A stretch of DNA of 64,000 nucleotides, taken from IMG/VR virus record IMGVR_UViG_3300045988_160012; one strand, written 5' to 3'. The notes under the pieces were generated by a model. That model searched no databases. It saw nothing but the letters and a program-made list of their open reading frames with translations, and was not told the origin of the DNA. The translations under genes and the position numbers were made by a program. Within the stretch, counting starts at the first letter, position 1. Each line of letters starts with the position of its first letter. This stretch comes from a virus. This document shows, piece after piece, positions 2,835 to 57,387 of the stretch.

Positions 2835-3788
2835 CTAAATACCCAAATCAAGTTTTAATTGAGGGCGAATTGGCTCATAATCCAATAAGGTAAAATCTTC
2901 AATGATAAAATCATAAAAATTATTCTTTTCTGGATTAAGTATCAATTCTGGACGAATTATTTCATCCTCTTCATGAACAAGTAATTTTTTAAATCTATTA
3001 AAAATTTCTATTGCCTGTTCTTCATGACGGTCATAAATCTGCTCATTTTGTACAAAATGGCAAAATACACCAGCTTTATATCCTGTATGTCTTGCAATCA
3101 TCATGAGCAATGCTGCATACTGAATTTCATTCATTCCTCCAGCTCCAGATGCAGTAAGCATATCTCCACTTCTTTGAATGAGTGTCATATCAAGATATTC
3201 TCCTCTAACATTCCACATTGTAAGGAAAGCACATGGAGCAAGACCTTCTGTTTCTGCTAAATCTGTTTCTTGCCAAAGAGACATAATTTTTCTTCTGCCA
3301 TAAGGGTCTGTTTTAATATCATTGATAAGTTTATTTACAAGGTCATATCTTTTAACAGTAGCTCCGTATCTTTGACCAATTGTACCATCTCCAATGTTCC
3401 AAGGTGACCACCATGATACTCCCATTTCTTCCATTTCAGAAATAACATTCGTGGGTTTCTGATAGATTGTAAAGATTTCTCTGATAGCTGTTTTCCAAGC
3501 CATCGGTCTGAGAGTGCAAATAGGAAATTCACCTTTTGATAAATCATATTTTCTCATTACCTGATTAATTGAAATTGTATGGGCTGGTGTTCCATCCGCA
3601 TATTTTGGTCTGGGATTAACGTCTTTATATCCCTCTGAAAGAATATCACATATTTCGTGTCCTAAATATCTATCTGCTTTAGTCATTAGTTCGTCCTCCT
3701 GTATATAATGTTGGATTGGTGGTAAATAACATATTCGCCACTTTGAATAATTCTTCTCTAGTGTTATCAACAGTTCCATCAATAACAT
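2835..3788 (-). CDS. thyA: thymidylate synthase (ThyA family)
   Basis: ThyA-like LAPCAF...W (P-C active site) and QRSGDMLTASGAGGMNEIQYAALLMMIA (cf. QRSxDxxLGxPFNIASYALL). The Asn in GMNEIQY is retained, suggesting dUMP specificity. An adjacent DHFR supports a genuine TS. Confidence 0.75.
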   Translation of the reverse strand: MLLMELLITLEKNYSKWRICYLPPIQHYIQEDELMTKADRYLGHEICDILSEGYKDVNPRPKYADGTPAHTISINQVMRKYDLSKGEFPICTLRPMAWKTAIREIFTIYQKPTNVISEMEEMGVSWWSPWNIGDGTIGQRYGATVKRYDLVNKLINDIKTDPYGRRKIMSLWQETDLAETEGLAPCAFLTMWNVRGEYLDMTLIQRSGDMLTASGAGGMNEIQYAALLMMIARHTGYKAGVFCHFVQNEQIYDRHEEQAIEIFNRFKKLLVHEEDEIIRPELILNPEKNNFYDFIIEDFTLLDYEPIRPQLKLDLGI

Positions 3789-5154
3789 ATGCCAAACAAA
3801 GATTCAGTATTTTACCTATTAGCTTCCCTTCTGGAATACCGATTTCTATTAAATCTCTGCCATTGATAGCAAGGTCTTTTAATTGAAAACATTCTGATTG
3901 TTCAACTATCCAGTCTAAAATTTCTGATACTTTATATACCTTTTCAAGTCTCAATTCTATATCTTTGGATGATTGACCTTTAATATCATGTGTTCTTAAA
4001 ACAAGCAATCTTCTTAATTGCTTTTCGCCCAATTTATTCAACAGTCTTTTTACTGCTGCTTTAGTCGGAGTTAAAGTAACATCATGACAATCAATTAATT
4101 GTGATACTGATTCAACAATATCATTGCTATAGCGAAGTCTTTTTAAAACTTCTTGAGCAATAGCATATGATGAATGTGCATGACCATAAAAATGACCAAT
4201 GCCATTTTCATCTTCAACATAATTGTTTGGCTTTCCTATGTCATGAAGGAAAATAGCCAATCTGGTAATTAAATCTGTATCTGAAGTAACATCATCCATG
4301 CAATGTAATGTATGTTCCCAGACATCATATAAATGATATGGATTATTTTGTTTAAAGCCAATCATAGGCTTAATCTCAGGAATTATCTGATAAATTACAT
4401 CCGCATATTCTCTTAATACTTCATTGCCACAATTCTCACTCATAAGAATTTTTGACAATTCCTGTGAAATACGTTCCTGAGAGATATTATCAAGTAATTC
4501 CCTTTCACTATGTATTGCCTGAGATGTATTTTCTTCAATTATAAATTTTAATTGAGCTGCAAATCTTATAGCTCTAAGTATTCTCAAACCATCTTCTTTA
4601 AATCTCTCTTGGGGATTTCCAACACAACAAATTATTTTATTTCTTATATCTTTTATTCCATCATAAAAATCCTGAAATCCGATATATTGGTTGTATGTAA
4701 TTGTATTGATTGTAAAGTCTCTTCTGGATAAATCTTCAAGAAGATTGTTTGTAAATGTTACTTTGTCTGGTCTACGATTATCGGAATATTTACCATCATT
4801 TCTAAAGGTTGTTATTTCATATCCTTCACCATCAAGTACAAAAGTAACTGTTCCATGTTTTAGTCCTGTTAGAACAATCTGAATATTTCTCTCATCTCTT
4901 TTACAAATAGTTTCTATAATAGAAATCATTTCGTTTGGTGTAGCATTTGTGGTAATATCCCAGTCATGAGGGATACGATTCATACACATATCCCTCACAC
5001 AACCACCAACCAAATAAGCCTGAAATCTTCCGTATTTTGTAAGAATATAGATGAGGTATTTTGCTCCTTCAGGAATCATGGCATTATTAAATGTCATATA
5101 CCCTCTATCACTTGCAATCATCTGTTTTCTCCTCTTTTTCAACAATATCCTCAA
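3679..5154 (-). CDS. cca: CCA-adding tRNA nucleotidyltransferase with HD domain
   Basis: LVGGCVRDMCMNRIPHDWDITT (GGxVRD polbeta-NTase head) plus an HD motif FLHDIGK. Confidence 0.8.
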   Translation of the reverse strand: MRILLKKRRKQMIASDRGYMTFNNAMIPEGAKYLIYILTKYGRFQAYLVGGCVRDMCMNRIPHDWDITTNATPNEMISIIETICKRDERNIQIVLTGLKHGTVTFVLDGEGYEITTFRNDGKYSDNRRPDKVTFTNNLLEDLSRRDFTINTITYNQYIGFQDFYDGIKDIRNKIICCVGNPQERFKEDGLRILRAIRFAAQLKFIIEENTSQAIHSERELLDNISQERISQELSKILMSENCGNEVLREYADVIYQIIPEIKPMIGFKQNNPYHLYDVWEHTLHCMDDVTSDTDLITRLAIFLHDIGKPNNYVEDENGIGHFYGHAHSSYAIAQEVLKRLRYSNDIVESVSQLIDCHDVTLTPTKAAVKRLLNKLGEKQLRRLLVLRTHDIKGQSSKDIELRLEKVYKVSEILDWIVEQSECFQLKDLAINGRDLIEIGIPEGKLIGKILNLCLAYVIDGTVDNTREELFKVANMLFTTNPTLYTGGRTND

Positions 5155-5926
5155 TACATTTGTATAAATATGGTGGTAAATATGTTTTGAGGATTTTCTT
5201 ATTATCTAATCCTGTTGTTTTATAATAGGCTTCTGCAATACCTCCTGATATGCAACACATAGTATCCATATCACAATGTAAACTTAGACAATTTCTCATA
5301 CAGCTCTCATAATCATGACTTTCAATAAAACACTGGATTGCTACTGGTACAGTTAATTCACATCTGTCACTCCAAACATATGATTTTTGAAGTTCTTCCA
5401 TTGTTTGTGTACCATCATATAATTTACCTTTGTAGGTCAGTTGACAAATATTTAGAATATCATTTTTACTATATCCTGAATTTGCCATTGCAATAGCAGA
5501 TGCAGTCATACAAGCTCCTGTAATACCACCTTCTGTATTATGTGTGCATATTGCAGAACTCTTGGACAATGCTATGACAGAATTAATGTCGTGTACTATA
5601 TCTCCTATATATGCAACTCTCATAGCTGAACCATTTCCAGTTGATTTATAATCAGTGATTTTATTGTTCAACCATTTAAAGAACATATCACCATATCCCA
5701 CATCTGGGAATTTTCTGCCAAACTCTTTATAGGCTTTTCCAAAATTACCTTTATAATGGTCAATTGCATATTTAGTCGCAATAGCCAATACAGTATCATC
5801 GGTAAATTCATTCAAGTAACCATTGAAAAGTGGACAATGTTCCCAATCTAATGTTTCTGGTCTTTGGTCTGGAAATTCAAATCGACTTCCAATAATATCT
5901 CCAATAATTGCTCCTATTAGTGCCAT
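5108..5926 (-). CDS. ADP-ribosylglycohydrolase (ARH/DraG family)
   Basis: N-terminus MALIGAIIGDIIGSRFEF and overall ARH-like composition. Confidence 0.65.
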   Translation of the reverse strand: MALIGAIIGDIIGSRFEFPDQRPETLDWEHCPLFNGYLNEFTDDTVLAIATKYAIDHYKGNFGKAYKEFGRKFPDVGYGDMFFKWLNNKITDYKSTGNGSAMRVAYIGDIVHDINSVIALSKSSAICTHNTEGGITGACMTASAIAMANSGYSKNDILNICQLTYKGKLYDGTQTMEELQKSYVWSDRCELTVPVAIQCFIESHDYESCMRNCLSLHCDMDTMCCISGGIAEAYYKTTGLDNKKILKTYLPPYLYKCIEDIVEKEEKTDDCK

Positions 5927-6954
5927 TAAATTTCACCTCTTACTACTCTTTCATTTACACTTGCCATAAATTCATTGATACGTTTATAATCAGGATTGTC
6001 TGGTAAATCCGTATTTTGTTTTGCATATTCGAATCGTTTCTGAAGATTTTCTACAATAGAAAAGAACTCTTCGGTAGGCTGACGGTTGACATCAAGATAT
6101 TTACCATTTCTGATTTCCATTAAAAAGTCATGGTCGTTTTCTCTATAAGTAATAATTTCTTTCTTCTCAAGAATATCTATTACCATAAGATAAAGCCTGA
6201 TTAAATGCATCATGTGTTTTGCCAATTTACCATGCTCAATAGCATTTTTATTTCGTTTTCCTATTTTGGCATAGTCTTTTACAATGTTATTCATTTCGCT
6301 CCACATTGATTTATAATCTCTAAGTGGATAATGAGAAAGTGTTACATCCATATAAATCTCAGTATCCATTTCTTCTTGATGAGATTTATCAATATAAAGT
6401 TTTATTGAATCTTCATCAAATGGAAAATACTTATTTTTAAAGTCATATGAAGCATTTCGAATACTGTTAAGGATATGCTTCTCTCTCTCAGACTGTCCTA
6501 CAAGTCTTGCTGCTTTGTTGTCCAATCTTCGTAATTGACTATATGCATAACCACCAAATGATTGAATTGCTCTTTTGGATAGGAACAAATCTTTATTATC
6601 CAAAAGTTCCTGACCAATTGGAGAAACATATAAATAATGTTCGGGTTTAAGTCCAAGTAATTCAATTGTATTTGGGTTGCAATTACTCAATAAATGAATG
6701 AGTTTATTGAGTGAATAAATAGTTGTATCTGTAGCTTCGTTGCAACACTGTTCAAAATTCACATTTGTTAAAATTTCAATTTTGCTATTTATTGCACAAC
6801 CACGAACATCTAAGTCGGATGTTTCAATATTCGTACCATAGGCATGAAAACCGCCTAATCCTAACAGGATAATATTATTTCCTAAATGTGGGTCTGTTCT
6901 AAGGAAATCATATTCTTCTGATTTCAATTTTTCTTTAATCTGTTCAATATTCAT
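5926..6954 (-). CDS. nucleotidyltransferase-fold protein (polbeta superfamily) of unknown specificity
   Basis: LLGLGGFHAYGTNIETSDLDVRG matches hG[GS]x9-13DhD. Large alpha-helical C-terminal region. Confidence 0.45.
   Translation of the reverse strand: MNIEQIKEKLKSEEYDFLRTDPHLGNNIILLGLGGFHAYGTNIETSDLDVRGCAINSKIEILTNVNFEQCCNEATDTTIYSLNKLIHLLSNCNPNTIELLGLKPEHYLYVSPIGQELLDNKDLFLSKRAIQSFGGYAYSQLRRLDNKAARLVGQSEREKHILNSIRNASYDFKNKYFPFDEDSIKLYIDKSHQEEMDTEIYMDVTLSHYPLRDYKSMWSEMNNIVKDYAKIGKRNKNAIEHGKLAKHMMHLIRLYLMVIDILEKKEIITYRENDHDFLMEIRNGKYLDVNRQPTEEFFSIVENLQKRFEYAKQNTDLPDNPDYKRINEFMASVNERVVRGEI

Positions 6955-15624: not shown

Positions 15625-15625
<1 letters not shown>
15549..15625 (-). promoter_or_regulatory. 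tandem promoter region: sigma70-like element copy 2 (15587-15625) followed by phage 18-bp motif (15549-15566) upstream of nrdD
   Basis: Same ~40-bp element as at 205-248 and 32430-32472; motif TGTATAACCTTAATAGTT. Confidence 0.45.
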
Positions 15626-18223
<2,598 letters not shown>

Positions 18224-33865: not shown

Positions 33866-34322
33866 CCTCTTTATCCTCCTGTGAATCAGGAATCAACTCA
33901 GGATTGTCAAAAATATTACCTACAACTTCTATATTATTCAGACAAATTTCTTTACCTAAAGGATACCATTTATGCTCTGTATAATCCAAAAATACATATG
34001 CACCATAGTCTGAAGAATATGAAATTAAACCAACCATGCCCGATTGAATTGCTTTACATATATCTCCCTCAAATATCAACTGTTTATTTTTATCCAACAA
34101 ACCTGTGTCAATTTGATATACATATCTATTATCTGATATAAGAGATAAAGTCATATTACCTAAAAGGTTCTTTTTTGCTAAATATAAATCATTGTTAGGA
34201 GCAAGATAAATATTCTCTTTTACCCATGTAGTTTCCTTTTTGTCATATACTCTATACATTTGCTTCCTCCTGTTCTGCTTTCCATAAGTAAAATTTCTTT
34301 CGGAGATTACAAATATCGGCAT
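33846..34322 (-). CDS. YopX-family phage protein
   Basis: C-terminus VVGNIFDNPELI is typical of YopX. Confidence 0.55.
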   Translation of the reverse strand: MPIFVISERNFTYGKQNRRKQMYRVYDKKETTWVKENIYLAPNNDLYLAKKNLLGNMTLSLISDNRYVYQIDTGLLDKNKQLIFEGDICKAIQSGMVGLISYSSDYGAYVFLDYTEHKWYPLGKEICLNNIEVVGNIFDNPELIPDSQEDKEDGQQTL

Positions 34323-36495
34323 ATGATTTTGCAGCTTCTTTTTCTTCTGGAGTCATATTTAAGAAAGTTGATTTACACCATCCTAAAAATTCATTTTCTT
34401 CTCTAGTTAATAAACTGCCTGTCCATTTGTAATTACCATATCGTAAAACAGATTGTGCTACTCCTCTTAACTTCTTCCAATATTTATAATAAAAGAGTTT
34501 AAGCTTTGTCATATATCCCACAGAATCTTCTATTACAAATCCCTCTATATCATTACCTTTGTATTTATATCCTTCTGCTGTTACTTCATTGTACCAAGCA
34601 TAAAAATCTTCCCATGATTCAATTACAAATGCCTTTTCTTTTACCTTGATACCTAATTTAGTTGCTAATTGGAATAATTCATCATAAGGCAATTTCTCAA
34701 ACTTCATTTGATTTTTCACTACATCCAATAAAACAACTTTACTTTCTGGATATTCAATAATATGTGGGTCATTTTCCATATCACAACATTCAAAAACAAA
34801 TGATACATTATTCTCTTTGATATAATCTTTAATTTTATTCATGGTATCAGTTCCATAAAAGCGATATAAAGCCTGTCTTAAATATTCAGAAAAGCAGCCT
34901 GTAGGTGTTGATTTACTTGTAATCAGCAAATCATCTGATTCTGGATTCCAACCAACAATACCCAAAAATCCATTCTCTTTTACATAAGCTGTAACTGGAA
35001 AATGTAATTTATATTTAAGATTTCCAATTCTAGTTTCAGGTCTTTCATTAATATTAAAGAACTTATCGTATGCTCTGGCTACGATTTTATAATCCTGTGT
35101 ATCAATATAAAGTCCTCTAGCTTTATTCGTAATGGAATCCCATACACCATTTTCAAAAGCCTGTCTTGTGAAATTAAAAGAAGATACTCTACCAAATTCT
35201 TTTTCAAAAATATATTTGTTCTGTCTTAATTCTGAAACAAAAGAATATACATCAACATCTACATTTTCTGCCATTTCTGATTCTTCAATCTGTTTTGTTG
35301 GTTCTTTAAAAACAGTATTCTGGATTTCAATAGGATGTAATTTATCTTCAGTAATCTGAAGAACCCTTAGACATCCACCAAATTCAATTTCACCTTCTAA
35401 GTTAAAAGTTCTTTCGGTTGTCTGCATAGGTGATTTAACAATATTTCTATGACCATGAATCTGATACATATTATGCGGTGTATTGTCAACAAACGATTTA
35501 TCTACAATATCAGCATCCGCATATCTGCCAACACCTTTTATCATCTGTTCTGTTGCAACTTTTAACAAATTATCGTCAGGGAAATTGCTAATACCACCAT
35601 GCGTTACAATAAAAGTTTTTCCTCGATATATAAAATAGCAACACTGATTTAATCTTCGATAAAATTCTCGTACTCTTTTCTGAGATACACCAGCCTTTAC
35701 TAACTGTGGCTTTGTCACAAATTCAAATTCTTTTGAACGAGAAATCAGATTATTCGCCCACATCCATAACCATCTTTCATGATTACCTTCAAGAAAAATA
35801 ACATTTGGTAATTTACTTAACTCACACAGATAGTTTATTGTTTCTGCATTTTCAATACCTCTATCAATGTAATCTCCACAGAATATATAAAATTCATCTT
35901 CCTTAATATTTCCATTAGAATCCATATATTCTTTAAGAGCTGTATAACATCCATGAATATCACCAAAAACATGAATTTTGTTATACTGGGATAAATCCAT
36001 TGGACGATACCAGATTCTATCTAATTCCTCTGGTTTTAATACAGTAATGCCAGATGGAATCTGCTGGGTTTCAAAACGTGAATACATTTTATCAATAACT
36101 TCTTTAGGAACTCGTTTAAGTGTCTCTCTCTCTGCGTTTCTTCGCTTAGTTTCCTCAATTGGAATATCAGTCATATCAATACAGTAAATTCTATAACGAT
36201 AATTTTCAGCTAAATCTTTATACTGATTCATTTCAGATGTCTTTGAATTTGTAGCATCAATCACTGTAAATTCACCATTCTGCATACGTGTTTCCAATAT
36301 ACGAAACAATGTGTTCCATACAGTTTTTTCATTGTTTCCAGAGATAACACATTCTCCATTTATGTCTAATACTGGACTCTGACAAAGCAAACGAATATCA
36401 TCTGCTGATAAAGCATAAGGTTTTAATCCATGCTTTTCAATAAATGTACTTTTGCCACATCCAGCACTACCACGCATAAGCAACAATGCTCTCAT
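34252..36495 (-). CDS. pnkp: trifunctional polynucleotide kinase-phosphatase-ligase (bacterial Pnkp-like RNA repair enzyme)
   Basis: N-terminal P-loop kinase GSAGCGKST. Central calcineurin-like phosphoesterase (GDIHG, GDYIDRG, GNHE). C-terminal NTase/ligase-like domain with a lysine motif VKENG (KxDG/KxNG). Confidence 0.7.
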   Translation of the reverse strand: MRALLLMRGSAGCGKSTFIEKHGLKPYALSADDIRLLCQSPVLDINGECVISGNNEKTVWNTLFRILETRMQNGEFTVIDATNSKTSEMNQYKDLAENYRYRIYCIDMTDIPIEETKRRNAERETLKRVPKEVIDKMYSRFETQQIPSGITVLKPEELDRIWYRPMDLSQYNKIHVFGDIHGCYTALKEYMDSNGNIKEDEFYIFCGDYIDRGIENAETINYLCELSKLPNVIFLEGNHERWLWMWANNLISRSKEFEFVTKPQLVKAGVSQKRVREFYRRLNQCCYFIYRGKTFIVTHGGISNFPDDNLLKVATEQMIKGVGRYADADIVDKSFVDNTPHNMYQIHGHRNIVKSPMQTTERTFNLEGEIEFGGCLRVLQITEDKLHPIEIQNTVFKEPTKQIEESEMAENVDVDVYSFVSELRQNKYIFEKEFGRVSSFNFTRQAFENGVWDSITNKARGLYIDTQDYKIVARAYDKFFNINERPETRIGNLKYKLHFPVTAYVKENGFLGIVGWNPESDDLLITSKSTPTGCFSEYLRQALYRFYGTDTMNKIKDYIKENNVSFVFECCDMENDPHIIEYPESKVVLLDVVKNQMKFEKLPYDELFQLATKLGIKVKEKAFVIESWEDFYAWYNEVTAEGYKYKGNDIEGFVIEDSVGYMTKLKLFYYKYWKKLRGVAQSVLRYGNYKWTGSLLTREENEFLGWCKSTFLNMTPEEKEAAKSYADICNLRKKFYLWKAEQEEANV

Positions 36496-48108: not shown

Positions 48109-49022
48109 TTACATAGATTTAAGGTTTTTTAGAATCCATGCTATAACATCTACCGTCCAACCATTTCCACACAATTCCACTCTTTTTGAAGCAGATTTTA
48201 CACATTCAGTAAAACCATCTGGTAGTGTCTGCAATCTTTCAGCTTCAATAGGGTGTATTTTTCTAAATGAATATTCACCAAGATAAATATTATTTTTGTC
48301 ATTACCAGAAGAAGGCAGCGTATTCATCTTGATAGTATTATATCTGGCTCTATTTTGTTGTGAATAATTTCCTTTTCCGCTTGTATCCCAACTAACAATA
48401 GTGTTATTCCTATTGAATCTAATTGTATCTTTGTATTTCTCAAAGCTTTTAATATCATGTTTACATGAATACTCAATATCTTTAATAACTTTATCAGAAT
48501 GTGGATACTCTTTTGAAAATGGTATATTAGTCCAATACAACCTTTTTCGCATTTGAGCAGAAAACTCCATTGAATTTATTTCAACAGGTTCGACCTGTAA
48601 TCTTTTGGAAATTTCATTTTGAATATCTTTAGATATTGAAGAGTTGTTTTCATACAAAAAATACTTGCAATGACTTTCATTCAATGCCCTTACAAACTGC
48701 ATAAACAACTTGAATCCCATGCCATCACAAGTAACCTCTCTATCTGCTCCTCCTCTTGCAATACTCCAGTATGTACATGGACTTCCACCAATCAGCAAAT
48801 CAAATCCCTGATATTGCGTGAAATCACCTTCAAATACATCTCCTAAATATTCATCAGATGGATAATTATATTTCGCTACAGCATTGGCAGCTTCTTCTAT
48901 TTCATACGACACGTATCTCTCTACTGGAATACCAGCTCTTTCTAAAGCAACTCTTCCGCATGATATTCCGTTGAATAAACTTAATACTGTAATCCCTTTA
49001 TCTGGAATTACTCTTTTATGTT
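48109..49022 (-). CDS. dcm: C5-cytosine DNA methyltransferase lacking its start codon in the current orientation
   Basis: Motif IV GGSPCTYWS and ENN motif inside the annotated 48109..48912 ORF (GTG start). The frame stays open upstream to 49022, encoding motif I VLSLFNGISCGRVALERAGI, with no start codon before a TAG. Confidence 0.8.
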
Positions 49023-49145
49023 GGGTGGCTACCTTATTTTAAATACTTTGTAGTATTCATTTATTCAGCCACCCAACATTTTTACATTATTCTCAAACGA
49101 AAGGAGCTTATTTTTATGCTTTTTGAACCTCATAAAAGAGTAATT
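49006..49145. other. invertible DNA segment (15-bp perfect IRs aattactcttttatg / cataaaagagtaatt) carrying RBS+ATG+first codons (MLFEP-HKRVI) of the C5-MTase in reverse orientation; contains nested 11-bp IR gttgggtggct/agccacccaac
   Basis: Plus-strand AAAGGAG (49100) -N9- ATG (49116) CTT TTT GAA CCT CAT AAA AGA GTA ATT. Inverting 49021-49130 yields MLFEPHKRVIPDKGITVLSLFNGISCG... in frame on the minus strand. Confidence 0.65.
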
Positions 49146-50027: not shown

Positions 50028-50786
50028 TTAAATTGCAACAGGTAAATCATTCGGTGTATAGACTGGCATTGGTTTCAGCTTAAAAATATTCTTCTTATGC
50101 ATAGAGTCAATCTTATGTTTGATATTTTCATCTTCACATTCACCTGTTCTGATATATCTGTTAAGTGTTGCATATGAAAATCCCAGATTATCTTCATCTG
50201 TAAGTCCACACAAACCATCAATCGGAACTTTTCTTGTCAACTCTTTAGGTAATCCAAGATACTCTCCAATAGCAATTACTTCATCGGTTGTAAGCAGAGA
50301 TAACGGACTAAAATCACCAGCTCCATCACCGTAACGTGTAGCGTATCCCACCCAATCTTCACTAAGATTACAAGTATTTGCCACTCTGCCATTTAAAGTC
50401 TGTGCAATAGCATATAATGTAGCCATTCTAATTCTTGCTGGAAGATTGGTACTTGTCTGCATACTCCAATGGTCGCACAACTGAGGTTTGATTTCATGTT
50501 TCAATGATTTAATTGCTCCATGAATGTCTACCGTATAGTTTTCAATACCAAGATGGTCAACAAGTTTGTATGCCATATCAATATCTGACTGTTCACCATT
50601 TGGCATAAGAACACCAATCACTCTATCTTTTCCCAGAGCTGCTACACATAATGCAGCAACTACGCTTGAATCTTTGCCACCTGAAATACCTACTACAGCA
50701 TCACAACCATTTCCATTAAGTGAAAACCAGTCCTGAATCCATGCGATAATTTCTTTTGTTGTCTTTTCTACATTAAACTTATACAT
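50028..50786 (-). CDS. nadE: NH3-dependent NAD+ synthetase
   Basis: PP-loop VVGISGGKDSSVVAAL and NadE-like length and pattern. Confidence 0.8.
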   Translation of the reverse strand: MYKFNVEKTTKEIIAWIQDWFSLNGNGCDAVVGISGGKDSSVVAALCVAALGKDRVIGVLMPNGEQSDIDMAYKLVDHLGIENYTVDIHGAIKSLKHEIKPQLCDHWSMQTSTNLPARIRMATLYAIAQTLNGRVANTCNLSEDWVGYATRYGDGAGDFSPLSLLTTDEVIAIGEYLGLPKELTRKVPIDGLCGLTDEDNLGFSYATLNRYIRTGECEDENIKHKIDSMHKKNIFKLKPMPVYTPNDLPVAI

Positions 50787-50846
50787 TCTGTACTTTCCTT
50801 TCTATTCAATTTGAGGTGGACTTTCATCCACCTCACCAACAATTGC

Positions 50847-51374
50847 TTAACCTAAATCATATCTCCAAATTTCTACATCTACAGAAGATTTACCAAACAC
50901 ATCCTGAATAATTTTATACACATCATTCCAATCTGCACCACCTCTATAGCTTCCAATTCGATATGGCATAGCAACTGTCGCTCCAATCTTCTCAGCTTTC
51001 TCACGAACATCCAAGAAAGCCATTTTCATTGCAGTTAAATCAGTCTGCTGCTCATCCATACCAAAATTCTTCTGACCAAAAAGATTAACAATATACTGAT
51101 ACTTAGAATCATATGCTTCAACATTTTCATTCTTCATAGTATCAACCATTACCATAGCCCATGTATCAACTGGAACATACTGAACTGTTCCAAGCATTTC
51201 AATTTTATTTTTATTGCAATGCTTCACATATTTAACATATGCCTTTTCAACATGAGGGTATCTGTCAGCTACCTGTGCTGCTACACCGCTTCCCATAACA
51301 CCTAAACAATTTGTCTGGTGTACAATAAAATTTGCATCTGAATCAAAAAGATTTCCATTGATGTTCTTAATCAT
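50847..51374 (-). CDS. macrodomain protein (ADP-ribose binding/processing)
   Basis: MIKNINGNLFD...FIVHQTNCLGVMGSGVAAQV matches the macro-domain signature. The start is probably the internal Met at 51374, not the annotated 51431. Confidence 0.7.
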   Translation of the reverse strand: MIKNINGNLFDSDANFIVHQTNCLGVMGSGVAAQVADRYPHVEKAYVKYVKHCNKNKIEMLGTVQYVPVDTWAMVMVDTMKNENVEAYDSKYQYIVNLFGQKNFGMDEQQTDLTAMKMAFLDVREKAEKIGATVAMPYRIGSYRGGADWNDVYKIIQDVFGKSSVDVEIWRYDLG

Positions 51375-51387
51375 CTTTATCCCTTTC

Positions 51388-51638
51388 TTAGAATCCTTTA
51401 CTTTCTGCATGGATGCTATTTCTGATTTCATTTAATGTCTGGTTACGAACAACCTTACCATTAAGGAATACAGTCTCAAGCATATTAATATCAGACTCTT
51501 TCACATCATCTGTTACAACCTGACCCTTTTGGATTCCATCAATATATTTGATTTCTCCATCTTTGTTACGATATACTCTGACCATACCCTTCTGAGATTT
51601 CTTAACACCATCACCTGTTTTCGGGTCTTTTTGAACAA
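51388..51638 (-). pseudogene. nadV: 3' fragment (~83 codons) of the NAMPT/NadV-like gene, separated from its body by the IS insertion
   Basis: The frame is open from the IS boundary: VVQKDPKTGDGVKKSQKGMVRV...NMLETVFLNGKVVRNQTLNEIRNS. This matches the conserved NAMPT C-terminus (..VFKDP...KKG..L.HTVFKNGKV...DEIRKNA). Confidence 0.7.
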
Positions 51639-51920
51639 CCCCGCCCGACGGGTCGGACGAGGATTCCGTTGCAGCCGTCAGGATTTCTCACATTGGGATG
51701 CATTGGAACCGCGATTTAGTCCAGAGTTACGCTTTTCCTAACTTCGCCGACATCTTGCGGTGCTTTGTAAGTCAGGAACAGGATTGCCCTAGTGCCGTCC
51801 GTCCACCCCCACATTGTATCATACGATTGATACACATCCAGAAAGTGGTGACAAAAGGGCAAGATTTACAGTTACAATTCTATATTGTTTTCGGGTTACC
51901 TTGATTAAAAAGTTTATAGA
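51639..51920 (-). ncRNA. putative omegaRNA/reRNA scaffold of TnpB (3' end of tnpB through right-end hairpin)
   Basis: GC-rich, structure-rich non-coding stretch between the tnpB stop and the IS end. Its position matches the established location of TnpB guide RNAs. Confidence 0.35.
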
Positions 51921-53666
51921 TTACTCAAATACTGGCATATACCGTATTTTCATTTCAGCGGCTAAAGTTCTTAAACTTGGTCGCTTTCTTTCTTCTAGCA
52001 CCTCATACGGAATGCTTCGGTAGAAGAAATGTTTTCGAATACCTGAAAATGTATTTGTGATCCTTGCCCAGATATTCTTGTAGGTTTCTTGTGAAAACTC
52101 TGGTACAGTACCTTCTTTTGTTTTCAGAAGATTTAGCATCCGCGAGTCTGGTACCAGTTTCTCATACAAACCGAGACCTACCAGACCAATCGTATATGCC
52201 GCAGCTTGATGAATGGAAATTCCATACTTTCGCATGAACAGAAACTTTCCCATTTGACTGGTATAGGCCGGATCAATCTTGCAAAAGGCAATTTCTCGTT
52301 TTAAGCTCTGATTTTCGATGCTTGATGCAATCCTCTGATAAGCAAATAAGGTCATATGATGATTTCCTTTTCGATTTCCGTATTTTCTGGATGCCAGTTT
52401 GATCGTCAAATCAATGTCTTCCACAATGAGACGTTTATCCTTTTCTGCACACCAATCAAATATATCCTTCACTGCTGCTCCCAAAATATTTGTAACCTGA
52501 CCAGTAGATTTGTTCATAAGGTCAAATCGAATTAACTTCTGGTCAAGCAGTTTTCCGGTTTCATCCAGTTCTGCCAATGCAAAATGATCATAATTAATAT
52601 CCATAGAAATTGCACCATTTCCGTAATAACTGTTTTCATATGCTTTTAGCTTCATAGTAACGGAGATGATCAGATACTGCTTATTTTCCTTATCACGCTT
52701 CAAAATGAAATTGTAGCAAAGTGACTGTCGATCTTCTGGCTTGCAGGTAAAGTTTTTCTGAAAACTTTCTTCGTTTCTTGGAAGCTTAAAATCATGAAAG
52801 ATCGTAACAGAACCATCTATGCAGGTAACAGACAGATCTTTCCCATCATATTTACACAGGAAGTTTCCATACTTTGACGTATGTCTGCCCGGAAGTGACA
52901 TACTCTGGTGGCGCTTTTCAAAAAACTCTTGTCTCCATTTATTAGATGCCTTTTTCGAAGTTTTCTGGTCCTTATCATTTGATGAATCATCGGATTTTGT
53001 AACTTCAACTACATCTTTCTCAGAATACAACTTCTTTCCACCAAACACAATCCGCTCTGGTGGAAGTTTTTCAAGGTTCTCCAGTTTCTTCGCTTTGCGT
53101 TTTCTTGCTTCTGTTACCAAAGCCAAACGTGTCTTTAACTTACGAATATCAGCTTCAACCTTACGCTCATACTCATCCAGATTCACCATCATCTTATTAA
53201 ACAAAATGATCTTAAATCCTCTAACCTTCGACTGGCATTTCGGATATGGTTTAATCCATTTTTTTGTTTTTATATAGAGACGAATGGAGTTTTTAATTGC
53301 TCTCTTTTTATCCAACTCTTCTTTCACAGACTGAATCTTTTCATCACGATTCTTTAAATCTGCAGCGATTGTCGTTTTATAATACTTTTTTAGTTCCTTT
53401 TGTGAAGAAATCTGTCCAGAAGCTGCTGTATAGATTGCTGCATTATAATAATCATTGGTTTTGTATTTTTCTTTCAAAAAGACAGGATAGGCATGGTCAA
53501 GTAACGGCCCTGCATTTAAATATTTCTGATCATAGAGTGCATTGTACAGATCCATTTTGGCATCATTAAATACACGCATCGTCTCTAGAAGCGATGCGGC
53601 ATTTTCAATGGTTTTCTTATCTAAATAGTAACGCTTATCCGAATTGATTGTCCTTGATAGTTCCAT
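51921..53666 (-). CDS. tnpB: TnpB-like RuvC nuclease (OrfB_IS605 family), atypical long form
   Basis: RuvC-I ISMDINYDHFA, RuvC-II RLIVEDIDL, and the hallmark IDPAYTSQ. Probable ATG start at 53666 with RBS CCGAGGT (the track start at 53705 is a TTG). No CxxC...CxxC zinc finger after PAYTSQ. Confidence 0.6.
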   Translation of the reverse strand: MELSRTINSDKRYYLDKKTIENAASLLETMRVFNDAKMDLYNALYDQKYLNAGPLLDHAYPVFLKEKYKTNDYYNAAIYTAASGQISSQKELKKYYKTTIAADLKNRDEKIQSVKEELDKKRAIKNSIRLYIKTKKWIKPYPKCQSKVRGFKIILFNKMMVNLDEYERKVEADIRKLKTRLALVTEARKRKAKKLENLEKLPPERIVFGGKKLYSEKDVVEVTKSDDSSNDKDQKTSKKASNKWRQEFFEKRHQSMSLPGRHTSKYGNFLCKYDGKDLSVTCIDGSVTIFHDFKLPRNEESFQKNFTCKPEDRQSLCYNFILKRDKENKQYLIISVTMKLKAYENSYYGNGAISMDINYDHFALAELDETGKLLDQKLIRFDLMNKSTGQVTNILGAAVKDIFDWCAEKDKRLIVEDIDLTIKLASRKYGNRKGNHHMTLFAYQRIASSIENQSLKREIAFCKIDPAYTSQMGKFLFMRKYGISIHQAAAYTIGLVGLGLYEKLVPDSRMLNLLKTKEGTVPEFSQETYKNIWARITNTFSGIRKHFFYRSIPYEVLEERKRPSLRTLAAEMKIRYMPVFE

Positions 53667-53699
53667 GCAAATTACCTCGGTTGAAAAATAGGTTAACTG

Positions 53700-53755
53700 T
53701 TGCAATATCTCTTTAAATATGCTATTATTATAGCATATTTAAAGAGATATTGCAA
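53700..53755. promoter_or_regulatory. perfect 26-bp-arm palindrome (TTGCAATATCTCTTTAAATATGCTAT tatt ATAGCATATTTAAAGAGATATTGCAA) between divergent tnpB and tnpA
   Basis: Read directly; sits in the divergent promoter/operator position. Confidence 0.7.
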
Positions 53756-53786
53756 GTATCGATTGTAAAATGAACGGAGGTTTCTT

Positions 53787-54236
53787 ATGGACGATTTAAA
53801 CAGAAAACGACATGCCGTTTACAAACTCACTTATCATGCAGTGTTTGTTATTAAATATCGCAGAAGGGTAATGACAGAACCCATCATTACACACATGAGA
53901 CAGTATGCTACTCATCTGATTGAACAGTGTTATCAGGGAAAGCTTCTCGAACTAAATGGAGAACCCGATCACATCCATATCCTGTTTGAACTTCCTGCAA
54001 CAGCAGCTCCATCCGTTGTTGTGTGCAGTCTTAAGACCCAACTTTCAAAAGAAGTTCGAGCAAAATTTTGGGATAAGATCAAAGATAAGCTCTGGAAGGA
54101 TAGCTTCTGGTCAGACAGTTATTTCATTACCACTACCGGAGGCGCAAACATTGAAACACTAGAAAGATATATCCAAGACCAAGGGATTGAAAAACCAAAA
54201 CGAAAATATACCAAAAGACAAGCAAAGAAAATGTGA
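53787..54236 (+). CDS. tnpA: IS200-type HuH Y1 transposase
   Basis: HuH motif DHIHILF; catalytic Tyr region FWSDSYFITTTGG; RBS GGAGG. Confidence 0.85.
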   Translation: MDDLNRKRHAVYKLTYHAVFVIKYRRRVMTEPIITHMRQYATHLIEQCYQGKLLELNGEPDHIHILFELPATAAPSVVVCSLKTQLSKEVRAKFWDKIKDKLWKDSFWSDSYFITTTGGANIETLERYIQDQGIEKPKRKYTKRQAKKM

Positions 54237-54293
54237 AAATACCATTGCACTTGATATTGATTTATTTTTTATGCCGCATTCATCCCCGCCCGA

Positions 54294-55838
54294 CTATGTC
54301 GGACGAGGTTTTCTGCGGAGAACTGGATAAACCAAAATAGGTTTACCATTGATTTCAGCATATGTAGCTTTATAAGCCCAGCCCTGTGTATCTCTTGTGT
54401 TATACTGGAAACTGTAAGAACCAGCACCAAATACTACATTTTCAACTGCATAGCCAAGGTTAGTCATATGATTACAAATGCTTTCACATCTTTCAAGTGT
54501 AATAGCATCTCCGTACACCATTCCAATATGAGAGTCTAATACTTTATACCCCTTAGAGTTTATAGTTCCACCGAAAATCTCCCAAAGAATATCCAGTGTT
54601 CCTCTCTCTTCAATAGTGGCATCACGATATGTGAATGTGTCGTTCTCACCATCATTAGACCATGTAGCAATATATTTCTTATTTCCAATCTCAAGGTAAA
54701 TTGGAACAAGCTGTCCAGACGTATCTGTTTCATTGCAATAAAGTGACTGCATCATCGGACTTCTGGTATAGTAAGATTCAAATGCTTCTTTACTTTCATG
54801 GGCTTTCCACATTGGGGCAATACCACAAATAATCTCTTCTGGGTCACCGCTGTCAGGTCTAATATTGATTCTGCCTGTATGATTAAGAATTACATCCTTA
54901 TTTTTTCTAACAATATTGTCAACAAAATTCCAGTAATCATAACTGTCTGCCACAAAGCTGAAAGGTTTATTTGGATAAAGCTCTTTACACATTCTTACAA
55001 AAAATGTTTCTTCATCTCCATCTACTGCATAATTGCTTGTAGTACAAGAATGTTCAACAGATGCAGACCAGCTTCCAACATCCTCATTTTCAACATCAGC
55101 TCCATAGTAATCACAAAGATACTGAATTGAAGGGATTGTAGATGTTTTATCGAAGCTTGTTAAAAATGCAGCTCCGCTTGTAATAGCAGCATCAAGACTA
55201 GCCATACCTCTAAAAGAAAAATCGCCACAACCAACTCTCTTCCAATTCGGATTGTCAGATGTTAAAACAATATATTTTTCAATAATCTTTCTGTAAATAT
55301 AAGCTCTTGTTGCTGTTGTTGTAGGTAACCATAAATTACAAGAAAATAATGTCTCAAGATAATTTGTTACCCATGCAAAATCAGGATGTGTATTTTCGAC
55401 TGTACAACAAGGTACTCTATATGGTACTTTTGTACCTTCTGGCAAAGCCTTAATCTCAATCGGGAGATAGCCAAGTTTATGAAGTGCTTCAATATGTTCT
55501 GTATGAGCATTTTCATCAAATGTATTATGGATATACAACTTATACTCATTAAGCACTTCGTCTAACGGTCTATCAAAGAAATATTCATTAAACTGTTTTA
55601 CCAAATATTCCTTAATAAATCCCTGTAATCCAAACCAGATTACAAATTTGCTCTGAGGAAAGAATTTGTTACTACGTGGTGTCCAAGTGGAATACATCAT
55701 TGTCATTCCATCTGGATACATAGCCCGATGTGCAATTTTATAAAAATCGCATAATAACATCATATTCTTCATTTTACTTATCCTCCTTACAATGGCATCC
55801 ACAACCGCAATCACATACGTTCTCAGCATAATCAACAT
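54294..55838 (-). CDS. nadV: nicotinamide phosphoribosyltransferase-like (NAMPT/NadV or Namat) body; C-terminus truncated by IS (last ~7 codons read into IS hairpin)
   Basis: NAMPT-like length and architecture. The C-terminus ...GKPILVYPVLRRKPRPT* ends inside the IS end. Its native continuation is found at 51638-51388. Confidence 0.7.
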   Translation of the reverse strand: MLIMLRTYVIAVVDAIVRRISKMKNMMLLCDFYKIAHRAMYPDGMTMMYSTWTPRSNKFFPQSKFVIWFGLQGFIKEYLVKQFNEYFFDRPLDEVLNEYKLYIHNTFDENAHTEHIEALHKLGYLPIEIKALPEGTKVPYRVPCCTVENTHPDFAWVTNYLETLFSCNLWLPTTTATRAYIYRKIIEKYIVLTSDNPNWKRVGCGDFSFRGMASLDAAITSGAAFLTSFDKTSTIPSIQYLCDYYGADVENEDVGSWSASVEHSCTTSNYAVDGDEETFFVRMCKELYPNKPFSFVADSYDYWNFVDNIVRKNKDVILNHTGRINIRPDSGDPEEIICGIAPMWKAHESKEAFESYYTRSPMMQSLYCNETDTSGQLVPIYLEIGNKKYIATWSNDGENDTFTYRDATIEERGTLDILWEIFGGTINSKGYKVLDSHIGMVYGDAITLERCESICNHMTNLGYAVENVVFGAGSYSFQYNTRDTQGWAYKATYAEINGKPILVYPVLRRKPRPT

Positions 55839-56709
55839 TCATAGCAAACACAGTTACATTTTCATCACTTTTAAAAGGATAAATGCTATCTGTTGTGAAT
55901 ACATGGTCAATCAGCTTTCTGTGCTGAGTTGTTCCGAAAATACTTTTCTTTTCATAGTCCACTGTAAGAAGATTCATTTTATCGTCACCAAACTGACCAT
56001 CATAAATACTCTTTTCACAATGAGAAACAAACAGATAAATGTTTCTTGCCCCCATCTCTTTCAATTTCTTTGCTGCATAATAGAAAGTTCCACCCTTACT
56101 ACAAATATCATCACGAATAAGAATATCTTTTCCTTTAATATCTTCAGGTTTAATTCCCATGACATCTAATCCAAGAATCCGACCTGTTCCCCATTCTCTT
56201 TTCTTAACACCAAATGCATACGGAATCTTAATCCCTTTAGAATATCTCTTCATAGCCCCCTCATCAGGGAAAAACATAATCGGTGCAATACCATCGTGAA
56301 TCAACATATCAAGCACGTTGCTCACAAAAATATTAGTATTGATTACATTGCAATTCTTGATAGTTGCTGCTACAACACTTGAATGTGGGTCAACTACAAA
56401 TACTCTGTCAAAATTCAGAGAATTAATCATTTCTGCAAAATACTTCATAGCAAAAATATCATTTGGCTCTTCGATTCTGTCCATTCTTGCGTTAGGTACA
56501 TATGGAAGGAAAAGAGATACATTCATTCCATGTGCCTGATAGAATTTTGTTAAGAATGAAACTGCTACAAACTCAGCATCATCCTCATAATTCCAAGTAA
56601 TAACAACTGTTTCTCCCTGTAAGCTAACATCACCTTTTACATTTGCTGTTCCATCAGGAAATCTCTTTACTTCAACTTCTTTTCCATTTACTCTAATCAT
56701 AATCTTCAC
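55774..56709 (-). CDS. prs: ribose-phosphate pyrophosphokinase-like (Prs; or ADPR-PP synthetase Adps of NARP1-type pathways)
   Basis: VKRFPDGTANV...; LPYVPNARMDR; PRPP-binding loop LIRDDICSKGGT. Confidence 0.7.
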   Translation of the reverse strand: MKIMIRVNGKEVEVKRFPDGTANVKGDVSLQGETVVITWNYEDDAEFVAVSFLTKFYQAHGMNVSLFLPYVPNARMDRIEEPNDIFAMKYFAEMINSLNFDRVFVVDPHSSVVAATIKNCNVINTNIFVSNVLDMLIHDGIAPIMFFPDEGAMKRYSKGIKIPYAFGVKKREWGTGRILGLDVMGIKPEDIKGKDILIRDDICSKGGTFYYAAKKLKEMGARNIYLFVSHCEKSIYDGQFGDDKMNLLTVDYEKKSIFGTTQHRKLIDHVFTTDSIYPFKSDENVTVFAMNVDYAENVCDCGCGCHCKEDK

Positions 56710-56751
56710 CTTTCTTTTTAGATGTATAACCTTAATAATTATAACCGTTAT

Positions 56752-57387
56752 TTAGTTTTCATTTGCCTGTGTGGATTCATCTGTATCTGCCTTTGCTTCC
56801 GTTGTTTCTGTAGATTCTGAATTTTCTCCATAATGTCTACCAATTACATCAACCTGACAACTTGCCATTGTTCTGAGAGCTGCATTATGAGCTTTAATAC
56901 TTGTACCAGCACAACAATGACTATCAACCTTAATTACCGTATTTGGCATAGCAGTTCTTAAACCAATGGCATTTGCTACAACACAAATATCTGTGCATAC
57001 TCCGCAAAGTTCGATTTCATCACTACTACTACACACCTGAGAAAGAATTGCAATCAAATCCTTGCTTGCAAATGTATTTTTATCAACTACACCTACATAC
57101 TTTTTCTGTTTGCGAAGCATCTGAACAGCTTCCCAAACATCCTTGTTGATACTTTCTCCACCAGATTTTTTAATACAATGCGGTACAGGAAGTTTCTTGC
57201 CTTCAAGAGTATCCAGATAATTGTCATAATGAATATCTCTTGTCAGATAAATAGAATCATAATCCTTTCCGTATTTCTTCAGCTTTTTTACAAGCTTTGG
57301 CACAATGGCTTTTGTCTCGTCATTTCCTAACGCACCATCAATAAAGTCATTCTGCACATCCACTACAACCAAAATCTTTTTGTTCAT
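56752..57387 (-). CDS. pncA: isochorismatase-family hydrolase, nicotinamidase (PncA)-like
   Basis: VVDVQNDF N-terminal motif; catalytic Cys region ELCGVCTDICVVANAIG. Confidence 0.6.
   Translation of the reverse strand: MNKKILVVVDVQNDFIDGALGNDETKAIVPKLVKKLKKYGKDYDSIYLTRDIHYDNYLDTLEGKKLPVPHCIKKSGGESINKDVWEAVQMLRKQKKYVGVVDKNTFASKDLIAILSQVCSSSDEIELCGVCTDICVVANAIGLRTAMPNTVIKVDSHCCAGTSIKAHNAALRTMASCQVDVIGRHYGENSESTETTEAKADTDESTQANEN

Follow-up and report, generated by a model that had tools for sequence, protein, structure and literature searches.

A complete insertion sequence (IS) of the IS200/IS605 family splits a gene for a Namat/NAMPT-family transferase in a 64,000-nt stretch of viral DNA, IMG/VR record IMGVR_UViG_3300045988_160012 (this whole stretch is called the window). 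The split is real, both parts are one gene, and the interruption is a 2.7-kb IS200/IS605 insertion. Taken as a whole, it is very probable that a host-derived element entered a phage Namat-type gene and most probably inactivated the enzyme. An autonomous element from a Lachnospiraceae-type gut host would have transposed as single-stranded DNA into a large phage, landing directly 3' to a coding-strand TTTAT at the Tyr504/Lys505 boundary of the transferase. The enzyme, and hence the central step of the NAD cassette that contains it, would most probably be dead, and the phage would stay viable because the cassette is accessory. By analogy with the family, in which seamless excision is established, the transposase TnpA could restore the gene exactly. 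The window presents a clean natural case of transfer, in which an IS200/IS605 element passed from a gut Firmicute to the genome of a virulent-type phage, and the insertion ties the phage lineage to Lachnospiraceae-type hosts. The event is ordinary in kind; the comparisons suggest that the cassette it hit is an undescribed variant of the NARP1 anti-defence system, so that an anti-defence cassette is most probably seen here knocked out by a reversible insertion.

The split transferase gene and its empty site

The original prediction held that one NAMPT-like gene is cut by an IS200/IS605 insertion about 80 codons before its natural stop, and that the frame beyond the element is its C-terminus. 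Both points were borne out. In an NCBIfam search, the upstream open reading frame (ORF; 54294..55838, minus strand) covers positions 4-397 of the 465-position profile NF006629 and the downstream frame (51388..51639, minus strand) covers positions 397-463. Since the two matches meet at position 397, the profile match is contiguous over the junction. When both halves were aligned to Namat and NAMPT references they were again contiguous, the 3' part matching residues 422-487 of SpbetaL1 Namat and 415-479 of human NAMPT in solved structures (E 2e-28).

Decisive evidence came from relatives in which the gene is uninterrupted. Searching IMG/VR with the upstream protein gave four contigs, all with a single through-running gene of 584 codons and a protein 99-100% identical, and an exact-word scan for the downstream flank added three further metagenome contigs with an uninterrupted gene. 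L001-L003 are among the relatives with an intact transferase gene, and L001 served as the reference for the restored ORF. Flanks are ~98-99.5% identical between the window and these seven contigs, all of which contain the empty site GGTTTAT/AAAGACCC (the slash marks the insertion point; the longer reading is ...CCTATTTTGGTTTAT/AAAGACCCGAAAACAGG...). BLAST break-points against the seven contigs define an insert of 2696 bp with zero bases duplicated or lost. Removal of the insert in silico restores an ORF of 1755 nt that differs from L001 by 8 nt. The downstream frame is thus related to NAMPT C-termini, and the relatives carry one gene here instead of an independent small one.

With residues and codons numbered from ATG 55838, the insertion point is the codon boundary Tyr504/Lys505 of the 584-codon ORF. 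The native 5' part ends with base 54327 and the native 3' part begins at 51630 (KDPKT...); exactly 80 native codons are severed from the gene. The junctions first proposed (~54321 and 51638) were therefore roughly right, each being off by about three codons. The truncated product consists of 504 native residues followed by 10 foreign ones (PVLRRKPRPT and a stop), not the seven IS codons (RRKPRPT) read originally, and the "VVQ" encoded at 51631..51639 is IS sequence, not transferase. The true start of the transferase is probably ATG 55772, as judged from an AAGGAGG 8 nt upstream and from the stop of the preceding PRPS-like gene, which lies 2 nt before this ATG; a protein of 562 aa would result, with the break behind residue 482. 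The first in-frame start on the severed piece is Met520.

The window is the only one of eight related sequences that bears the insertion. By this comparison the insertion is recent, because all seven relatives have the empty site and the IS differs from another copy by 3 nt. The original claim of a recent disruption stands on these grounds; its argument that both halves are in frame provides no evidence, since an insert of 2696 bp is not a multiple of 3 and sits at a codon boundary.

The intact protein of L001 matches SpbetaL1 Namat (9W5X/9W5W) with E 7e-150, and human and other NAMPTs with 1e-60. Assignment of the gene to the NAMPT family was correct, but on sequence comparison it is nearer the Namat of NARP1 than a true NAMPT/NadV. 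Further evidence comes from the selectivity-clamp helix, in which Y475 and Y479 align to F392 and Y396 of SpbetaL1, whereas human NAMPT has G385 and K389. The catalytic core (His245, Arg306, and Asp308 in SpbetaL1 numbering) is kept in the query and in 119-120 of 120 homologues. A ~70-aa insertion relative to SpbetaL1 Namat and human NAMPT is found at ~54610..54820 (residues ~341-409), between DPEEIICG and EERGTLDILW.

The break aligns to F421/K422 of SpbetaL1 and F414/K415 of human NAMPT. In human NAMPT, Lys415 and Lys423 are active-site residues contributed by the second (partner) chain. They correspond to Lys505 and Lys514, which 118 of 120 homologues retain and which both lie on the severed piece. 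Moreover, in the SpbetaL1 Namat structure, domain A includes strands beta13-beta17 and helices alpha19-alpha20 from the C-terminal region; by position, the severed 80 residues should include its final strands and helices. Because the two lysine equivalents and the end of domain A are on the severed piece, the transferase is considered likely to be inactive. The lesion would be reversible in principle, because the family excises seamlessly.

Six private codon changes are found in the window gene (two non-synonymous and four synonymous). One of them, P436S (window ~54533, codon 436), is specific to the window and falls in a conserved LDPH motif that has Pro in the four other genomes compared and in SpbetaL1 Namat. 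It could be drift after inactivation, although the changes are too few to judge. Relaxed selection on the broken gene was considered and set aside for the same reason.

Interruptions of a related gene were also seen elsewhere. In the Staphylococcus phages phiSNIID, O1-102, and others (records H13 and H20-H22), nadV is matched by tblastn in 2-3 separate pieces over ~2.2 kb, and this gene appears to be interrupted by an intron or homing element. The coordinates of all features are collected in Table 1.

Table 1. Features of the split gene, the inserted element, and the surrounding cassette in the window (strand "." = no strand assigned)
Feature	Coordinates	Strand	Basis
Namat/NAMPT-family gene, 5' part	54327..55772	-	Pfam NAPRTase + NAMPT_N; NF006629; native codons through Tyr504; 99% identical to intact genes L001-L003
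IS-derived tail of truncated ORF (PVLRRKPRPT + TAG)	54294..54326	-	Direct sequence reading against empty site; stop inside left-end hairpin
Namat/NAMPT-family gene, 3' part	51388..51630	-	80 native codons (KDPKT...KGF) + stop; NF006629 397-463
Complete IS200/IS605-family element	51631..54326	-	2696 bp; BLAST break-points against 7 empty-site contigs; independent copies share ends
Left-end imperfect hairpin CCTCGTCCGAC-ATA-GTCGGGCGGGG	54284..54308	-	Begins 18 nt inside left end; 5' flank TTTAT at 54327..54331
tnpA, Y1/HUH transposase, 149 aa	53787..54236	+	PF01797 E 6.8e-33; NF033573 E 3e-33
Near-perfect palindrome between tnpA and tnpB-like gene	53696..53759	.	Arms ~26 nt; face-to-face promoter-like sites
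TnpB-superfamily gene, 581 aa	51921..53666	-	Weak guided_TnpB match; 36-member alignment; AlphaFold (AF2) model; Foldseek
Candidate omega/reRNA scaffold	51631..51920	-	290 nt, 46.6% GC; right-end hairpin 51639..51662, then TTGTTCAA
Predicted guide segment AAAGACCCGAAAACAGGTGA	51611..51630	-	First 20 nt of Namat 3' part; with TTTAT recreates empty site; from published TnpB architecture
Isochorismatase-family gene, candidate PncA-like nicotinamidase, first cassette gene	56752..57387	-	PF00857 E 4e-17; co-occurs in independent lineages
PRPS-like gene, candidate Adps	55774..56709	-	Sub-threshold Pfam PRPP-synthetase matches; PDB Prs E 1.6e-17 or weaker; stop 2 nt before Namat start
Macro-domain gene	50847..51431	-	PF01661 E 5e-6; overlaps Namat 3' end; downstream of insertion
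NadE NAD synthase gene	50028..50786	-	PF02540 E 4e-52; downstream of insertion

The inserted element and its TnpB relative

The element carries divergent tnpA and tnpB-like genes, and its tnpA product keeps H62-I-H64 and Tyr128. Oriented from left end to right end, its top strand is the minus strand of the window. The copies compared comprised seven from short gut-metagenome contigs (98.9-99.2% identical), copies from bacterial assemblies (79-82%), and four from IMG/VR. In every contig that extends to an end of the element, the alignment halts exactly at IS position 1 or 2696. TTTAT precedes all 11 copies whose 5' junction could be read, the window copy and 10 external ones, and the right end is GTTCAA in every copy in which it was read; the 3' flanks are mostly unrelated. 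The same imperfect hairpin with an 11-bp stem is found near both ends, at a distance of 18 nt from the left and 8 nt from the right one, without terminal inverted repeats, and the hairpins show compensatory changes in relatives. Each hairpin is preceded on its 5' side by four bases able to pair with the cleavage-site region (GAAT with GTTC on the right, AAAA with the T-run of the target on the left), and the right-end pairing is invariant in 11 relatives. The Y1 HUH/Tyr transposase, the subterminal hairpins, the lack of a duplication, and the fixed 5' TTTAT together place the element in the IS200/IS605 family. By analogy with that family it would transpose by single-strand peel-and-paste and excise seamlessly.

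Similar to IS605, IS608 (ISHp608), and ISDra2, the element combines a Y1 HUH TnpA with a TnpB-family gene, has subterminal imperfect hairpins in place of terminal inverted repeats, is inserted 3' of a fixed AT-rich pentanucleotide without duplication, and has a 3' non-coding region at the omega/reRNA position. The divergent gene arrangement is that of IS605. Its right end finishes in TCAA, as in IS608, and the spacing resembles that of IS608. However, the target is TTTAT instead of the TTAC or TTGAT of the studied elements. Its TnpB is also different, having 581 aa instead of ~400 aa, no zinc finger, a His at the RuvC-III position, and too much divergence for any match in Pfam or in a PDB sequence-profile search.

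The palindrome between the two genes is kept in all copies examined. It contains TTGCAA-17-TATAAT on the minus strand and TTGCAA-17-TATTAT on the plus strand, both of the extended -10 type, and may be an operator for divergent transcription. No terminator-like site was found on the minus strand within the element. Given this and the promoter-like site before the tnpB-like gene, transcription of the downstream Macro and NadE genes may continue.

The IS is present once in the window, which holds ~490 TTTAT sites. Its GC content is 38.2% compared to 32.6% in the remainder, as the original prediction of a GC-richer, host-derived element had it. The exact cluster of its TnpB-like protein contains 4531 member sequences from gut metagenomes, in which most contigs end at the IS. 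Human-gut metagenomes contain copies of the element that are 99% identical, and Lachnospiraceae genomes contain 81-85% relatives; relatives of the TnpB-like protein with 83-85% protein identity were found in Lachnospiraceae metagenome-assembled genomes (MAGs) and in the isolate Anthropogastromicrobium aceti. Together, the gut copies and the Lachnospiraceae relatives support the host origin of the element and Lachnospiraceae-type hosts for the phage.

Two sets of copies deserve separate mention. The same IS (99.9% identical, 3 nt different) lies at 3341..6036 of L024 (IMGVR_UViG_3300029856_000130), between tail-sheath and virion-structural genes. Its presence in this other phage-like contig indicates that the element enters (pro)phage DNA repeatedly. 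Two gut-metagenome contigs, L017 and L019, have 99% identical IS copies that share a common 30-nt 3' flank and differ in their 5' flanks. This pattern is not expected of independent insertions, and recombination between copies or a nested element may account for it.

The tnpB-like ORF most likely starts at ATG 53666, because the resulting 581 aa equal the length of the 99% identical relative P0001. Pfam returned nothing for the window protein and matched 13 of the 36 family members weakly to PF07282; moreover, the family profile gave no match to any PDB sequence at E <= 10. A weak 28-bit match to the NCBIfam model guided_TnpB (NF040570) covers residues 398-485. An AF2 model built on 36 homologues reached a pLDDT of 87, and its best Foldseek matches were Cas12f (E 3e-5), Cas12e, Cas12m, ISFba1 TnpB, and RuvC resolvases. 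Model and Foldseek agree on a RuvC nuclease domain with WED/REC architecture. In the alignment of the 36 members, RuvC-I Asp356 and RuvC-II Glu416 are invariant and the RuvC-III position is a near-invariant His486 (SIHQAAAYTIGL); the C4 zinc finger (Cys4 motif) is absent. The protein therefore departs from the canonical D-E-D triad with C4 zinc finger, and the structural model identifies it as a non-canonical TnpB.

A profile search for this protein found 2259 50%-identity clusters at E <= 1e-3, 465 of them at E <= 1e-30, mostly of 530-600 aa. Relatives at 44-56% identity are also paired divergently with a Y1 transposase, and a few occur without one. A 41%-identical member without a transposase (P0112, in L039-L046) has one genomic context across many samples and may be an immobilised copy. 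The major TnpB clade RIIIr-4 has an Asp to His change at RuvC-III, has lost the zinc finger, is represented in viruses, and is presumed active but untested (Altae-Tran et al., PNAS 2023, PMC10691335). Going by its published description, this clade shares with the window protein the Asp to His change, the missing zinc finger, and the occurrence in viruses. That description highlights members associated with RHH/MazE, whereas the window sub-family is paired with Y1 TnpA (PMC10691335).

According to the published TnpB architecture, a structured RNA made from the element's 3' end extends into the flanking sequence, which supplies the guide, and the 5' flank is the target-adjacent motif (TAM). The 290-nt region at the right end is a candidate guide RNA, with the position and behaviour expected of an omega/reRNA. 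Blocks that recur across relatives with 38-85% protein identity (CAATnGTATG, GGAYGGACGG, GCTGGACTAAATCG, GGAATCC, the hairpin, and GTTCAA) are separated by variable stretches. RNAalifold on 11 relatives gave two helices with 15 covarying pairs showing compensatory changes; one helix is over 200 nt away from the end, too far to be accounted for by the DNA hairpin of TnpA. An Rfam scan at E <= 1 found no known omegaRNA family, its only hits being noise from miRNA/snoRNA models that match the palindrome.

The TnpB relative would thus act with RNA from the right end, programmed by the flank AAAGACCCGAAAACAG and with TTTAT as the TAM. As guide flank and TTTAT together are the uninterrupted allele of the seven siblings, such a complex could cut IS-free siblings or excision products. 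Cutting of the IS-free allele would drive the element back in by recombination. A His-type TnpB guided by the Namat flank may work as a gene drive, or as a weapon against IS-free siblings during co-infection. With its TTTAT TAM, known 20-nt flank, and public empty-site genomes, the locus is a natural target for asking if the His-type, zinc-finger-less TnpB clade is an RNA-guided nuclease.

Weighing other explanations

An element this abundant in gut metagenomes, found in the window alone among eight related sequences, could in principle be an assembly chimera, with multicopy host-IS reads misjoined into the phage contig and no real genome carrying it. This is considered highly improbable: both junctions are in one contig, the flanks are exactly adjacent in seven relatives with no base lost or gained, and target and orientation are canonical, a perfect two-sided footprint that is not expected of a misjoin. 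There is just as little reason to expect that the enzyme stays functional through IStron-like group I splicing from the mRNA or through complementation between fragments. IStrons such as CdISt1 are IS200/IS605-derived, occur in Clostridia in sense orientation within genes, and carry TnpB. The window element is likewise a TnpB-bearing IS200/IS605-type element in sense orientation in a protein gene of a Clostridia-associated genome. However, IStrons have a group I intron, whereas neither a group I intron nor any other Rfam family rose above noise in 51300..54500, and the 90 nt between the left end and the antisense tnpA leave no room for an intron core. Complementation would have to make do with a downstream fragment that has no start before Met520 and would miss Lys505 and Lys514. 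The notion that the downstream frame (51388..51639) is an independent small gene, with the upstream ORF ending naturally, draws on an ATG-initiated 65-aa ORF; it can be practically dismissed in view of the single continuous gene in seven relatives and the alignment of the fragment to the C-termini of solved Namat/NAMPT structures.

A different kind of alternative accepts the insertion and asks what maintains it. Loss of function could be selected as a reversible switch, for example if the cassette carries a cost or is detected in hosts that lack NAD-depleting defences. The element did hit one of ~490 TTTAT sites in an accessory gene, excision is seamless in the family, and P436S in the LDPH motif could reflect relaxed constraint. 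However, the insertion is in only one of eight sampled genomes, two non-synonymous against four synonymous private changes are uninformative, and the data fit a neutral insertion tolerated in a non-essential gene just as well; selected loss is therefore held to be unlikely.

The explanation by a host-derived insertion that inactivates the enzyme, and with it the guided role of the TnpB relative, has its own weak points. The insertion was judged from assembled contigs. The scan of species-representative genomes turned up copies of at most 85% identity, and the donor species was not found. Loss of enzymatic activity is deduced from the severed residues. The RuvC-III Asp to His change leaves the nuclease activity of the TnpB relative unproven. 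Folded as a single sequence, the 3' region does no better than shuffles (z = -0.86), for which reason the comparative data were relied on instead, and some of the covariation belongs to a hairpin that TnpA requires at the DNA level too.

The NAD cassette and the phage that carries it

The transferase gene belongs to a co-directional minus-strand row at 50.0-57.4 kb, in the order PncA-like, Adps-like, transferase, Macro, and NadE. A prs and nampt pair (Adps and Namat) is the signature of the NARP1 anti-defence system (Osterman et al., 2024). The reaction of a NARP1 Namat joins ADP-ribose pyrophosphate to nicotinamide and yields NAD+. As in NARP1, a prs-like gene lies directly upstream of a nampt-like gene in a phage, and the transferase has the two clamp-helix aromatics and the equivalents of the catalytic His, Arg306, and Asp308. 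A PDB search gave the PRPS-like protein only weak matches, and because these matches are weak its identity as Adps is taken from gene context. Several differences from NARP1 were found. Asp215, Ala242, and Gly213 of SpbetaL1 Namat are Ser, Ser, and Lys in the window transferase; this transferase has the ~70-aa insertion and its gene is broken; and the window operon also contains PncA-like, Macro, and NadE genes. NadE and PncA were absent within 8 kb at all 77 canonical viral loci, which have an acidic residue at the Asp215 position.

SpbetaL1 Asp215 corresponds to human Asp219, which hydrogen-bonds nicotinamide and is fundamental for substrate specificity. The Ser/Ser state was found in 96 of the 120 closest homologues and Asp/Ala in the other 24. 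A survey of gene context covered 84 viral loci, each with as much as 8 kb of flanking sequence. None of the 80 loci with Asp or Glu at the Asp215 position has a NadE or PncA-like gene near the transferase. By contrast, all four loci without an acidic residue, which come from three lineages, have NadE, and PncA and Adps are found in all three that reach far enough upstream. Two more Ser-type lineages, a 271-kb contig and a bacterial MAG, have the order Isochorismatase, PRPS-like, transferase, and NAD synthase, and the MAG cassette lies directly behind an NrtR regulator. The cassette on the 271-kb contig is interrupted by a NUMOD homing-endonuclease ORF. The four-gene cassette recurs in at least five divergent lineages.

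A Ser/Ser/Lys transferase, always accompanied by PncA-like, Adps-like, and NadE genes, is present in the window (50028..57387, minus strand) as well as in L005, L006, L143, and L145. In L143, another Ser-type cassette, a NUMOD1/NUMOD3 homing-endonuclease-like ORF at 5103..6026 lies between the Adps-like and transferase genes, and represents a second kind of mobile element within this cassette type.

On the strength of these residues and gene neighbours, a tentative reading, plausible but short of probable, is that the transferase is the core of a nicotinate-based "deamidated NARP1" and not a nicotinamide transferase. In this route PncA would convert nicotinamide to nicotinate and Adps would convert ADP-ribose (ADPR) to its pyrophosphate (ADPR-PP). 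The Ser-type transferase, which has lost the Asp and kept the adenine clamp, would then join nicotinate and ADPR-PP to give nicotinic acid adenine dinucleotide (NaAD), and NadE would amidate NaAD to NAD+. The alternative is an ordinary nicotinate phosphoribosyltransferase that depends on phosphoribosyl pyrophosphate (PRPP) and relies on host NadD. Because the adenine clamp is kept and the cassette has NadE but no NadD, the deamidated route is the simplest reading. Of the other known systems, NARP2 (NAMPT and NMNAT) was rejected since an Adps-like gene adjoins the transferase and no NMNAT domain was found in the cassette and neighbouring ORFs scanned (44-63 kb), and NARP3 (PnuC and NadR) consists of proteins different from those of the extra genes. 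The searchable literature yielded no description of a PncA/Adps/transferase/NadE cassette. If the deamidated route is true, a Ser-type transferase acting with PncA and NadE via NaAD would be a further counter-defence route beyond NARP1-3, and one that would also exist as an NrtR-regulated bacterial operon.

The rest of the window encodes a DNA polymerase, helicases, an NAD-dependent ligase, NrdD, RNA ligase/PNK, a CCA-adding enzyme, and three tRNAs, which make up a replication and nucleotide-metabolism module. The phage-encoded NAD-dependent DNA ligase (15625..17604) implies a direct need of replication for NAD+. The RNA ligase/polynucleotide-kinase fusion (34252..36495) and the CCA-adding enzyme (3679..5154) together resemble a kit for tRNA repair. 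A megablast search of the whole region gave no match among 50,697 phage records, and the lineage is known from metagenomes only. It is uncultured and has a virulent-type genome of ~130-140 kb. Among the relatives, the segment corresponding to window ~48974..49145 is variable, with ~1 kb of extra sequence in L032 and a 140-nt inverted match in L033.

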